A program made the translations under genes and the position numbers. The notes beneath the pieces are model-generated. The model made no database searches and was not told the DNA's origin. It was given only the letters and a program-made list of their open reading frames with translations. Source: a virus (lineage: Duplodnaviria > Caudoviricetes). Taken from it: a stretch of DNA of 35,920 nt. Location of the stretch: IMG/VR virus record IMGVR_UViG_3300027828_000067, positions 1 to 35,920 of that record; one strand, written 5' to 3'. Shown here in pieces: positions 1 to 35,920 of this stretch (position 1 is its first letter; each line of letters starts with the position of its first letter).

Positions 1-112
1 CGTGCCGAAGGGTACGGTTTGCGAGTATTGCAAAGAGCCTAACGCCCCAAGTGGGCGATGTACCAACCTACTGTGTACAAACTACCTCAATAACGAGCAA
101 ACTGCACGCTAA
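1..112 (+). CDS. 3' end of a small Cys-rich protein (VPKGTVCEYCKEPNAPSGRCTNLLCTNYLNNEQTAR*), truncated by the window edge
   Basis: Frame 2 is open from position 2 to TAA 110-112; CxxC...C-x4-C; the stop lies in the TAAC core of the attC-like site. Confidence 0.55.
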   Translation, partial: VPKGTVCEYCKEPNAPSGRCTNLLCTNYLNNEQTAR

Positions 113-198
113 CGGCTCGGCTATGTTTTGAAGCCGACACCGAGAAAGTTAGATTGAAAATATAAACCAACAAAGGCTTTTAAATATAGCTTTTGTTA
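110..198 (+). repeat. attC-like inverted-repeat site (site 1)
   Basis: TAAC 110-113; arm GCTATGTTTTGAAGCC 120-135 pairs with GGCTTTTAAATATAGC 175-190 (2 G.T, 1 T.T); GTTA 195-198. Confidence 0.75.
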
Positions 199-214
199 TA
201 AACTTTTAAAAATT

Positions 215-448
215 ATGGCAAAATGTATTCGATGCGGCGATAGTATTCCGCAACCAGACAACAGAAAAATATGCAGAGATTGTATGGGAGATTGGCGTAA
301 AATGAGAGCTATAAATTATGCCTACTGTGAAAAGACCATCGGAAAAATGGAGGGGGAACAATTTGCTCCGTTCCAAAAAGAAATGAAGCGACTTGAAAAT
401 ATATGGAGGCGCAATAAAGAAAAGTGGGCGCAAATTGTGTGCGAATAA
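215..448 (+). CDS. small zinc-finger-like cassette protein
   Basis: CIRC...CRDC; lies between GTTATAAAC (195-203) and its near-complement GTTTGTAAC (458-466). Confidence 0.65.
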   Translation: MAKCIRCGDSIPQPDNRKICRDCMGDWRKMRAINYAYCEKTIGKMEGEQFAPFQKEMKRLENIWRRNKEKWAQIVCE

Positions 449-498
449 TTTTTTATTGTTTGTAACGTAGTGCTAAATAAACCTTTTATTGCAATAAA

Positions 499-24476: not shown

Positions 24477-24506
24477 CGCATTGTGCATACCGATACCGTT
24501 AGCGGT
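24477..24506 (-). repeat. attC-like half site (site D)
   Basis: C-N11-GTTAGCGGT on +; no partner arm found. Confidence 0.5.
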
Positions 24507-24609
24507 AAGCTGAAAAATATAATAATTCATTTGTGCTTAATTTAGGCTGCATCGCTTTTAACGAAACAACCAACCGCTAACAAAGCGCAAATTGCATACT
24601 ATCCAGCAT

Positions 24610-24810
24610 TTAATCAACGGCATCGGTTAAGTCCGTTTCTTTAGTTTCCCCTCTCGCTTTGCTTTTTGCAAAAGCATAGAATTTGCATAGTGCATTTTCG
24701 TAACGTTTTTTCGCTGATGAATTAGCGTAACTCATTTCGTTTAAACCAAAAAATTCTGAAATTTCTTTATTTGAAATTCCTAGCTCTTTTTTAAGTTCCT
24801 TAATATTCAT
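24610..24810 (-). CDS. XRE-like HTH protein
   Basis: IKELKKELGISNKEISEFFGL. Confidence 0.65.
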   Translation of the reverse strand: MNIKELKKELGISNKEISEFFGLNEMSYANSSAKKRYENALCKFYAFAKSKARGETKETDLTDAVD

Positions 24811-25049
24811 TTTGTTAAAAGATTAAGTTCGGCATTAATAATATAAACAGGAACATCAATTATAAATTGTTCAATAAGAATCAACCTATTTTTTGAGTTA
24901 AAGAATATTATTTCGCCATCTGACTCAATGTTTTTTACACAAAAAATATTTTTTGAATATTGGTAAACAATTAATCCATACATGGCAGAATCGCCATACA
25001 TTTTTTCTGTATGGCGAAGATTTAGTTTTGTAATTATTTTTTTATTCAT
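24807..25049 (-). CDS. hypothetical protein
   Basis: 80 aa; coupled to both neighbours (TAATG and ATGA-type overlaps). Confidence 0.55.
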   Translation of the reverse strand: MNKKIITKLNLRHTEKMYGDSAMYGLIVYQYSKNIFCVKNIESDGEIIFFNSKNRLILIEQFIIDVPVYIINAELNLLTK

Positions 25050-25228
25050 TATAATGAATCTTCAAATTGTTCGTATTCTGATTCTGTCATTCTTTCTTCA
25101 AGTACATTAAGTCCGCAAGAAAAAACTATTATTGAACCTTCATCTTCGCTATTCATTGCAACTTTAACGTCATTAATAAGTTGTTCTGTTGTTCTTGCTC
25201 TTAGTTTGCTTTCGATTAAGTTTTTCAT
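25049..25228 (-). CDS. 59-aa acidic protein (not in ORF track)
   Basis: MKNLIESKLRARTTEQLINDVKVAMNSEDEGSIIVFSCGLNVLEERMTESEYEQFEDSL*; follows a promoter. Confidence 0.6.
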   Translation of the reverse strand: MKNLIESKLRARTTEQLINDVKVAMNSEDEGSIIVFSCGLNVLEERMTESEYEQFEDSL

Positions 25229-25254
25229 TTTGTTTTGTTTTAATTATTATACTT

Positions 25255-25318
25255 CAAATATAAGCATTTACTTAATACTGTACAAGTGTTTTATAATTTA
25301 TTTTAAGTATTTACTTAA
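25255..25318 (-). promoter_or_regulatory. promoter TATATTTG with two palindromic operators
   Basis: CAAATATA 25255-62; TAAG(C/T)ATTTACTTA at 25261-74 and 25304-17. Confidence 0.65.
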
Positions 25319-25438
25319 TTATTCTTATAAAATGTAAAAAATGATACAAAAACCCCACCCAAAAACTAAAGAAACTACTACCAGCATTTAATCAAAGTCC
25401 GTGAAGTACGCAACTTGCGCGAACCGTTACCAACCATA

Positions 25439-25714
25439 CTACTCACTCCATTTCTTGCAAATATGGGAATGTGGGTCTGTAATGCCTTTAATGTCCAGCG
25501 ATACGAAGCAACTAAATTGCTCATGTTTTGGCTTTGTGCTCTCGTACATACAGTATTTGCAAGTGTAGCAAGTACGGTTGGTAACACAAGGTAAATTTAA
25601 TACTTCGTTTACTGCACTTTTGATAATTTGATAGCACTCACTTGTGCTTAATCCAGTTCCTACTTCGCTTTTTAAGTTTCTTGCGTGTCGTTCAATTACT
25701 TCTGCTTTATTCAT
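25439..25714 (-). CDS. chimeric-looking small protein spanning an attC-like core, Cys-rich C-terminus
   Basis: Starts inside the site B loop; codon 44 (GTT, Val) is the core; followed by CYTCKYC...C...C. Confidence 0.6.
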   Translation of the reverse strand: MNKAEVIERHARNLKSEVGTGLSTSECYQIIKSAVNEVLNLPCVTNRTCYTCKYCMYESTKPKHEQFSCFVSLDIKGITDPHSHICKKWSE

Positions 25715-25769
25715 TTTTATATAATTTTGTGGTTAATAATTTGTACTAAACTTACCAACACCGTTGAGA
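25571..25769 (-). repeat. attC-like site B
   Basis: GGTAAC 25580-85; arm GGTAAATTTAATAC 25590-25603 vs GTACTAAACTTACC 25743-56; GTT 25763. Confidence 0.75.
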
Positions 25770-25819
25770 ACAATAGCGTTACGCTCCGTTGCTCTCCGCT
25801 TCACTACAAATCCAACCAT

Positions 25820-26023
25820 TTAAAGTTTAAAGGCAGTAGCTTCTCCTTTGTAATTATAAGTAAAACCGTACGTCTCGCCACATTCGCATTTAACTTTGGT
25901 AAATCCGCATTTATTGCGGTTGCACTTATTGAGTAATTTGTCATCTGCATCCCATTCCGTAACATGACAGAATGGGCATTCATAATCTATTTTTGCAAAA
26001 CTGATGCTTATAATTTTATTCAT
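25820..26023 (-). CDS. small zinc-ribbon cassette protein
   Basis: CPFC...C...C...CEC; likely start MNKII; the frame stays open upstream to 26194 through the site A core. Confidence 0.6.
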   Translation of the reverse strand: MNKIISISFAKIDYECPFCHVTEWDADDKLLNKCNRNKCGFTKVKCECGETYGFTYNYKGEATAFKL

Positions 26024-26073
26024 AAGTAATAACTTTAAATTCCTTTGTATTTCTACTGTTCTAAAAACGAAAA

Positions 26074-26968
26074 TTACAACAACGTGTAAAAATAATAGCG
26101 GTTTCGGTGTTTCAATTTGACATTCTACAAGTTTGACCAAAAAGAAAAAGCCACCGCACTTTTGCCTTACAGGCAATTTGGTTTTACATTCCACAATAAA
26201 TCATCTTGTTCAACATTTATTATATATTTTCCGCTTTCATAATCAGGTCTAACATATTTTGCTGCATAATCAAACTTGTCTTTCCTTTCCATCTTATAAA
26301 CTATTCCTTCTGGTTTATCAGTTTTAAATCTATAATCAGAATGCCTATTCAATATTTCTAGTCCAGTTTCTATCGGCAAAGCCCCATATCCGCAAAATAT
26401 TAATCTAGGAGTTTCAAAGTTTTTTAACAAAAGCAAATTAAAATCCTTATAATTTAGGCGTTCATTATTAGCATTGAAATAATCAAAAACAACAAGTGGC
26501 TCATTTAGTATCTCATATTTTAAACTATGTACCTGCATCAACCACTCTCCAGTTATGCGCTCACCTTCACCTATAAAATCAAATCTATCTTTTTGCTTTT
26601 GTACCCATTCAGCAAAATAGTGATGTTGTTTGTATGGGCTTGTTTCTGCTAAATATCCAGATCGTGTCATTGCATGTATTTTACCGTCAAGTTTTGTTAT
26701 TCCAACATTGCTGCCGTCATATTTTTCAGTAACAATCAGGTAATCATGCTTATCTCTAGTTTTAATAGTCATTATTCGGTGTTGCCCTTCATGTACATAT
26801 TTATCAGTTCCACCAAGCTTAGAGCCAAGTAAGTGTGGAATACTACCATAATTTTTTCTATTTAAAGGTTTCATAAAAAATCCCTCCCTTTTTTTCTTTT
26901 TTACATTCGTTCATTTAATCAAATTTTGTAGGTTAATTCCGCTACTATTCTTACACAACACGTTAAAA
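26074..26968 (-). repeat. attC-like site A; arms enclose the RNA ligase gene
   Basis: AAC 26078-80; arm GTGTAAAAATAATAGCGG 26084-26101 vs CCGCTACTATTCTTACAC 26939-56; GTT 26962. Confidence 0.75.
26167..26874 (-). CDS. ATP-dependent RNA ligase family protein (nucleotidyltransferase domain only)
   Basis: Motif I EKYDGSN, III ITGEW, IIIa VVFD, IV EGIVYK, V AAKY; YGSIPHL N-terminus. Confidence 0.85.
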   Translation of the reverse strand: MKPLNRKNYGSIPHLLGSKLGGTDKYVHEGQHRIMTIKTRDKHDYLIVTEKYDGSNVGITKLDGKIHAMTRSGYLAETSPYKQHHYFAEWVQKQKDRFDFIGEGERITGEWLMQVHSLKYEILNEPLVVFDYFNANNERLNYKDFNLLLLKNFETPRLIFCGYGALPIETGLEILNRHSDYRFKTDKPEGIVYKMERKDKFDYAAKYVRPDYESGKYIINVEQDDLLWNVKPNCL

Positions 26969-35137: not shown

Positions 35138-35644
35138 TTATTTGCTTAATCGTATTTTTGCATCATTTTTGTATTTTACAAACCAACCTTCTTTTTGTAA
35201 ATACTTTTGCTTAGTCCAAATTGACTGAACGTCTTCTAGCGTCTTGCAATTTTCAAACTCAATCTTGATAGATTGTTGCACAGCATGATTGCCGTCATCG
35301 TCATAAGCATTGATACCAAGCAAACTTTGAAGTGTGTATCTTCTGAAATATGTAATCGCCGAACCTACCTTTTGCGGGTCTGTTAATTTAGGCAACTCCA
35401 ATGAACTTGCAAACAATATCTCCTCATTTTCAATATCGATTATGTTCGTTATCAATATGCCATCAGTAATAGGCTGAGTTATTATAAGGCCATGATTCAT
35501 CAATGGTTCTTCTACTGTCTCCATTAATGCGTTTAGGTCAGCATATTTGCTTTTAAAGAAAGGATTTGTTGACTTCTTTAATAGCTTGTTAAACTCTTGT
35601 TTTGCTTCAGCAAATCTTGCTGTTGGTGTTTTTTTTGTTTCCAT
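35138..35644 (-). CDS. erf: ERF-family single-strand annealing recombinase
   Basis: NPFFKSKYADL, GSAITYFRRYTL..LLGI...DDDG; likely start METKK. Confidence 0.88.
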   Translation of the reverse strand: METKKTPTARFAEAKQEFNKLLKKSTNPFFKSKYADLNALMETVEEPLMNHGLIITQPITDGILITNIIDIENEEILFASSLELPKLTDPQKVGSAITYFRRYTLQSLLGINAYDDDGNHAVQQSIKIEFENCKTLEDVQSIWTKQKYLQKEGWFVKYKNDAKIRLSK

Positions 35645-35920
35645 TTTTATAATTTTAAAGTCCAATCAATTTCATTAACGTATCATAATAACCTATAAAC
35701 AATAATATTGCAACTGCTAAAACATAATGCCACCATTTTAGTTTCTCATCTCTCATGTCTTTCATATTTTATAAAGTTTTACGTTATTTATTAATTCATC
35801 TATCTCATTTATGTTGAAATGAGTTTCGCTATCATCGTCAAAGTATAGCGTGCATTCATATATTTCTAACCTGTCCATAGTTGCATTTCCGCCAAGATCA
35901 TCATAAGAGTTAGCCAGTCC

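Follow-up and report, generated by a model that had tools for sequence, protein, structure and literature searches.

The window analysed here, 35,920 nucleotides in all, is a linear phage contig (completeness 78%) whose genes include a terminase, a portal, a capsid, an ERF, an RNA ligase and a methylase. No match to the tyrosine recombinase family PF00589 was detected in the window at that completeness. The contig ends carry no terminal repeat, and without one a circular join of the ends was ruled out. No Rfam family reached its gathering score in the window or in eight site-rich loci, and blastn against annotated phages returned only matches of at most 52 nt. A motif scan placed the site motif of the hairpin family described below mostly in Bacteroidota genomes, so the host of this phage is probably of Bacteroidota type. 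The central features of the locus are the following.

25439..25714, minus strand: a 91-aa chimeric gene, with a loop-encoded N-module (residues 1–43) and a start-less Cys-rich body (residues 44–91)
25583..25765, minus strand: site B, an attC-like hairpin with AAC at 25765-25763, 14-nt arms and GTT at 25585-25583
25586..25714, minus strand: the N-module, a predicted two-helix hairpin (pLDDT 91)
25426..25585, minus strand: the body, 160 nt, with 15-nt complementary ends
25427..25763, minus strand: the putative mobile cassette, consisting of hairpin B and the downstream body with AA|C at both ends, probably the routine unit

The ORF 25714-25439 (minus strand) starts at an ATG within the loop of site B, and the GTT at 25585 is its codon 44 (Val44; VLNLPC-V). 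The 14-nt arms of site B are paired and flanked by spacers of 6 and 4 nt. The AAC at 25765-25763 would be the routine cut (AA|C), the GTT of Val44 a secondary exchange point, and the gene-sense strand the recombining (bottom) strand. Directly upstream of site B, a tiny AAC...GTT hairpin remnant was observed (25763-25800, minus strand).

The N-module is under purifying selection, with a pooled dN/dS of about 0.37 over 6 sequences. Its predicted homodimer scored 0.63, compared with 0.11 for the best of three controls, against a score mark that 20 of 30 known pairs attained, as did 1 of 23 single chains; the model runs agreed on at least 94% of contacts, with a partner pLDDT of at least 85. This structural prediction supports binding by the N-module. 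In the body, the five Cys of the motif CxxCxxC...C...C and a Trp are invariant in all 12 aligned members, and the sole internal ATG corresponds to Met56, downstream of CxxCxxC. The structure model of the C-half was poor (pLDDT 64) and was left out of the analysis. Neither half received a name from Pfam or PHROGs, and among 45 homologues only 4 weak matches, below cut-off, were obtained. Foldseek gave no match at an E value of 0.001 or better, and the atlas matches were all below 0.9. Neither the full ORF nor the C-half alignment retrieved related loci from viral contigs, an exact search for the arm-B pattern gave no match, and a word search with the C-half recovered itself alone.

Additional sites and genes in the window are distributed as follows.

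26078..26964, minus strand: site A, 16-nt arms around an 884-nt loop, with AAC at 26964 and GTT at 26080
26167..26874, minus strand: the RNA ligase gene (PF09414), inside the site A loop
25820..26023, minus strand: the Cys-rich gene of the site A cassette (67 aa), which stands alone and starts at its own ATG
24579..25428, minus strand: site C/D, 16-nt arms around an 847-nt loop with several small ORFs, AAC at 25428 and GTT at 24581
24498..24581, minus strand: a body of 84 nt whose ends are complementary; a left arm without a partner follows at 24500
1..113, plus strand: a truncated body, with a frame open from base 2 to a TAA within the AAC box at 110-113
111..197, plus strand: site F, a short non-coding hairpin, whose downstream gene (215-448) has its own ATG
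195..480, plus strand: a body (195-466) and a terminal AAC box at 464 without partner arm, putatively attI-like
35138..35665, minus strand: the ERF single-strand annealing protein (PF04404), a candidate for a homologous-recombination route

Sites A and C/D share an architecture in which perfect or wobble-paired 16-nt arms enclose loops of 850-880 nt holding whole genes. Short direct repeats near 24597 and 25376 at site C/D suggest insertion into such loops. The preliminary description had also read the GTT of site A as Val39 of a fused frame. The triplet is indeed codon 39 of the open frame 26194-25820, but this frame opens with a GTG inside the RNA ligase gene and contains no ATG ahead of the Val. 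Furthermore, an ATG at 26023 belongs to the body itself, and all 4 homologues (66–70 aa; search limited to lengths of 36–116) likewise start there, without extension; a fusion at site A was ruled out on these grounds. Only 4 of 7 bases agree between the two ends of the site A body. At the left edge of the contig, it is plausible that a GTT start for the fragment 1-113, which is open in the expected register, lies just off the edge, as predicted from the body end; population contigs show a further 195 nt of sequence there. Contig depth falls across cassette F (111-467), from about 21 to 13 in one sequencing run (X1) and from 13 to 6 in another (X2), and population contigs contain alternative hairpins and bodies at both of its AAC ends. 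Cassette F thus appears polymorphic in the population.

The hairpin family was explored with an arm-plus-stem detector trained on loci from four motif scans and two protein scans. This detector reported 572 sites in 227 viral or metagenome sequences, compared with 9 in shuffles, and 199 sites in 121 genome loci, compared with 3 in shuffles; 448 viral sites were kept after removing duplicates and sites near locus edges. ORFs that start in the loop and cross GTT as Val were present in 4 of the 184 loops below 100 nt, in 84 of the 192 loops of 100–140 nt (a share inflated by one scan motif that enriched a coding arm family) and in 50 of the 72 longer loops. The other two frames contained 24 and 4 such ORFs at 100–140 nt and one each in longer loops, and no frame of the opposite strand exceeded 3 in the long loop classes. 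Shuffling the loop interiors gave means of 13.2 (100–140 nt) and 9.5 (at least 140 nt; maximum 17). Among the genome sites, Val crossing was found at 8 of 138. The bias holds with the arm codons excluded, by which arm stop codons alone were ruled out as its source, and it is absent from loops below 100 nt.

The loop start codons look real. Position -12 is an A in 91% of 134 loop starts and position -3 in 74%, compared with 48% and 41% of 170 out-of-frame ATGs, and the A at -3 fits the initiation described for Bacteroidetes (PMC6847099). At the other end, 124 of the 134 loop-start ORFs terminate within 20 nt of an AAC, 63 of them exactly in TAAC. A second (+1) register, which reads the core as Leu, was identified at 25 viral sites with real-looking genes (for example L287, L292, L320 and L325), and a single fixed frame was thereby ruled out. 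One Leu-register body resembles a DNA methyltransferase. Exchange between the Val and Leu registers would produce a frameshift. The suspected reading through GTT is thus non-random for Val, with 50 of 72 long loops against a shuffled mean of 9.5, but it is not the only register. The accompanying idea that Cys-rich, zinc-binding modules are the general cargo did not extend to the family and was dropped, as a CxxC occurs in only 22 of the 134 start-less bodies.

Several further observations concern the bodies and arrays. The 297 bodies lying between consecutive viral sites have complementary ends with a median length of 10 nt and a mode of 14, compared with the 7 nt of an R box. At L080, around 1440-1800, the body end recurs as a 21-nt direct repeat flanking a cassette. 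The cultured Polaribacter phage P12002L (NC_028924, L348) contains 11 family sites, several of them beside methyltransferase genes.

The two halves of the 91-aa protein have separate partners. Among 52 phmmer homologues, a count that includes three close relatives, 41 matched the N-half only (residues 1–43), 11 the C-half only (residues 45–91), and none matched both. Homology therefore breaks at the Val codon with different partners on each side, as the preliminary description had proposed, and the halves do not travel as a fixed pair. The three closest fronts (P0002-P0004, with junctions known as protein) are 93–98% identical over the first 44 residues and then continue into unrelated backs; in P0002, 43 of the first 44 residues are shared and a DUF551 domain begins at residue 47. 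Cys43 is retained in 2 of these 3 relatives with new bodies. Reciprocally, the back belongs to a body family found behind 11 fronts unlike that of site B, and these unrelated fronts mostly end in arm-like residues preceding the Val. A single body family is joined in this way to very different arms (LPC, NIGD, LLAD, TMPV and VLFG). Leaving the route aside, we consider it very likely that the halves are re-paired in frame at or beside the Val codon. This would account for a sizeable class of hypothetical phage proteins that are mosaic, with homology ending at one residue.

To locate the routine cut, 453 site contexts were compared at identities of at least 90%, the resulting pairs not being independent of one another. 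Eight pairs share the upstream body and change directly after AAC, and six share the hairpin and the downstream body but not the upstream body, while in no pair at this identity does a changed downstream body follow a shared upstream body and hairpin. The remaining pairs comprise 2 that share everything, 1 intermediate and 74 that share the hairpin alone. Near-identical phages also differ by whole AAC-bounded units (L129/L140, L139/L148 and L083/L086). Among the contig ends listed, population contigs from the two runs that contain this DNA (X1 and X2, possibly its source samples) branch at AAC boxes of the window (115, 463-467 and 25423), and the Val codon is bridged unbroken; no joints are listed for either run, nor any RNA run containing the sequence. 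With symmetric scoring, G.T pairs on the gene strand number 849, compared with 73 A.C pairs, and Qi et al. list a site of the same family in the same orientation as bottom strand (PMC9892861). Phage bodies lie on the bottom strand in 246 of 295 cases, and bodies of chromosomal arrays of the family lie on the top strand in 79 of 100. The pair counts, population branches, G.T skew and published orientation together indicate that the Val GTT is the R'' box rather than the routine crossover, and that the gene normally moves whole. The claim that G|TT is the working crossover, shuffling domains rather than whole genes, is contradicted by the 14 pairs at the AAC end against none. From these comparisons, routine shuffling carries whole genes, and half-swapping appears to be a slower second process.

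The pace of this second process can be read from hairpins of at least 80 nt. All 3 pairs at 99% identity or above retain the body, compared with 1 of 7 at 95–99% and none of 27 at 90–95%, and the upstream neighbour is kept in 0, 1 and 0 pairs of the same classes. The link between hairpin and body thus breaks more slowly than cassette order, yet fast on an evolutionary scale. In 34 of 43 coding pairs, identity ends 0–3 nt past GTT. Loop and 3-nt spacer remain together in 15 of the 43 coding pairs and in 76 of 129 non-coding pairs, compared with 11–12% by chance, and the spacer differs in 28 of the 43 coding pairs. An extrahelical base or bulge is absent from 382 of the 448 viral sites; a bulge on the R''-L'' arm is present in 18 only, and in none of sites A, B, C/D and F. 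Tyrosine recombinases adjoin arrays of this family in 6 viral loci, three of them near-identical, and in 5 genome loci; these include L139, L148, L150, L315 and L335 in phages, and L168, L174, L186, L205 and L225 in genomes. They point away from the array in phages and towards it in genomes. At L139 and L148, an unpaired AAC box adjoins the recombinase at the array end. All 7 scanned array-linked recombinases match TIGR02249 in two pieces and below cut-off, and the L150 enzyme, the sole one aligned to VchIntIA, is missing about 48 aa between the stretches that match. In class 1 assays, deletion of the extrahelical bases is described as raising top-strand recombination 50-fold and shifting it to R'' (PMC2727003).

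Reading through GTT, reciprocal partners, the frame bias and whole-gene replacement at AAC were observed in the sequences, together with a hairpin-body link lost within a few per cent of divergence. For the half swaps, we favour, somewhat above even probability, an exchange of the opposite strand at G|TT, a mechanism deduced from sequence patterns. A tyrosine recombinase supplied from elsewhere would move the hairpin and gene together, cutting at the far AAC end of a hairpin that would fold in vivo. Less often, it would cut the opposite strand at the Val codon (R'' box), and this cut would join loop-encoded fronts to new start-less backs, in frame. Strand choice may be loose because extrahelical bases are absent from most sites and the array-linked enzymes are without the IntI insertion by which such bases are read. 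Since the cassette genes lie on the bottom strand, phage transcription would enter via the hairpin, with the loop supplying the ribosome-binding context and the start codon. No near-identical genome pair differing by G|TT exchange alone was found among the 453 contexts, and no circular-permutation signature was detected in 15 body-sharing pairs, a comparison of low power in which most pairs have no called downstream site. Some swaps break upstream of the arm (L108/L112 and L103/L155), and 39 of 129 non-coding pairs share at least 8 nt past GTT, compared with 4% expected. Breaks upstream of the arm or well downstream of GTT indicate that more than one process is at work.

The same swaps could arise in other ways, each of which accounts for part of these data. 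An additional strand exchange at the L box of the hairpin 3' arm, with the spacer codon before Val travelling with the body, would explain the differing spacers, seen even between the 96%-identical loops L112/L127. Attack at this box is normally blocked by extrahelical bases and the I2 helix, according to PMC4792948, and both are missing here. We nevertheless regard it as improbable, as the spacer stays with the loop more often than chance in both coding and non-coding pairs, Cys43 was kept in two of the three closest relatives despite their new bodies, and L-box events are given as only 0.16–0.47% for attCaadA7 (PMC4792948). Recombination by microhomology between similar arms, for example by ERF, with the aligned arms keeping the frame and the swaps as a by-product, finds an enzyme encoded in the window itself. 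It also fits L108/L112 and L103/L155, which share body and arm but not loop, and P0020/P0035 and P0025/P0029, which have common arm residues and different fronts. This route seems unlikely to us when one body family sits on such different arms as those listed above, hairpin arms stay paired, and identity mostly ends within 3 nt of GTT.

The hybrids may instead record cassette birth, in which a hairpin and leader are reused and new DNA is captured behind them, the fronts being templates rather than swapped parts. Near-identical non-coding hairpins often have a leader in common that reaches as far as the ATG, although the genes behind it are unrelated (L278/L318/L322 and L288/L331/L337; the 39 of 129 pairs against 4%), which is in itself a possible trace of cassette birth. 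The long repeats at the ends of the 297 bodies (median 10 nt, mode 14) point the same way, as does the large excess in DNA of same-front over same-back pairs. We give cassette birth a low probability as the source of the hybrids, since the window's body family behind 11 fronts unlike its own indicates that existing bodies are re-paired too. The original proposal, in which G|TT at Val is the routine crossover and every shuffle makes a new fusion, retains the homology break at Val in its favour. It is highly improbable, given that the recent rearrangements are all at AAC (14 against 0) and that all 3 pairs of identical long hairpins have retained their body and none the upstream neighbour.

Returning to opposite-strand exchange at G|TT, a broader reading, which we put forward only tentatively, is that Bacteroidota phages run exon shuffling at the DNA level. 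A recombinase without the strand-selecting insertion would work both hairpin ends, moving whole genes at one and grafting folded N-modules, at site B a hairpin predicted to dimerise, onto start-less effector domains at the other. If true, new small proteins would be generated from a shared pool, and the system may show how cassettes are born. The reuse of a hairpin and leader on unrelated genes likewise bears on how cassettes are made.

Compared with known systems, site B contains the inverted R boxes (AAC...GTT), paired L boxes and unpaired central spacer of an integron attC, and the comparative evidence here matches its AA|C bottom-strand crossover with whole-cassette movement. In contrast, the two or three extrahelical bases expected on the R''-L'' arm are missing, and the insertion (I2) in the IntI catalytic domain that characterizes a complete integron was not recovered, all 7 recombinases falling below the TIGR02249 cut-off. 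An integron cassette gene usually lies on the top strand, upstream of its own attC, although this is not strict. The phage arrays of the site B family differ in having their genes on the bottom strand (246 of 295), in loops of 100–880 nt that encode proteins, and in a hairpin-body link broken within about 5% divergence. In its workings the locus resembles an integron cassette array, but it is not a canonical one, lacking both the extrahelical bases and the IntI insertion. In shufflons (Rci/PilV) and phage tail-fibre invertons, site-specific recombination also fuses a front to alternative C-termini in frame. There, double-stranded segments are inverted at one locus by a dedicated invertase behind one fixed front. 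Unlike both, the sites described here are co-oriented within each array and relatives differ by replacement rather than inversion, and variation within a pool shared by the whole population affects fronts as well as backs.

The single-strand hairpin sites, AA|C bottom-strand crossover and whole-cassette shuffling proposed here are those described for classical integrons (PMC2727003, PMC4792948). Qi et al. 2023 reported phage attC/CALINs with AAC...GTT hairpin arrays without integrase (PMC9892861), none having been found in this 78%-complete contig either, and their P12002L_attC1 is one of the 11 sites detected in the Polaribacter phage, in the same orientation. It is the only family site tested in print and showed no recombination with IntI1 (PMC9892861). 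The available text of that report makes no mention of loop-start genes or in-frame swaps (PMC9892861), both of which were found here, and no paper on either was found in the open-licence literature. IntegronFinder 2 is described as finding very few Bacteroidetes integrons (PMC9024848), and in an integron-like recombinase subgroup the insertion is said to be not fully conserved (PMC8138268). Our results suggest that Bacteroidota and their phages harbour an integron-like branch, without extrahelical bases and without the IntI insertion, that standard models would largely miss. The nearest natural parallel is ORF-11/ORF-18 of attI1 (PMC8876359), an ORF that starts in the recombination site, overlaps the crossover and serves cassettes without their own start. 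As described there, it involves short peptides, translational coupling and one fixed site, whereas many portable loops here carry fronts of 10–90 aa fused in frame. The nearest engineered parallel is the synthetic attC linkers of Nivina et al. 2020 (PMC7439510), in which the hairpin site is itself coding sequence and was proposed for module shuffling. Those linkers are engineered, whereas in the phage hairpins only one of the two arms is translated and the main crossover lies elsewhere than at the in-frame junction. If the proposed exchange is correct, these phage hairpins would be the natural counterpart of such linkers, combining a recombination site with coding sequence and re-pairing protein halves in frame.
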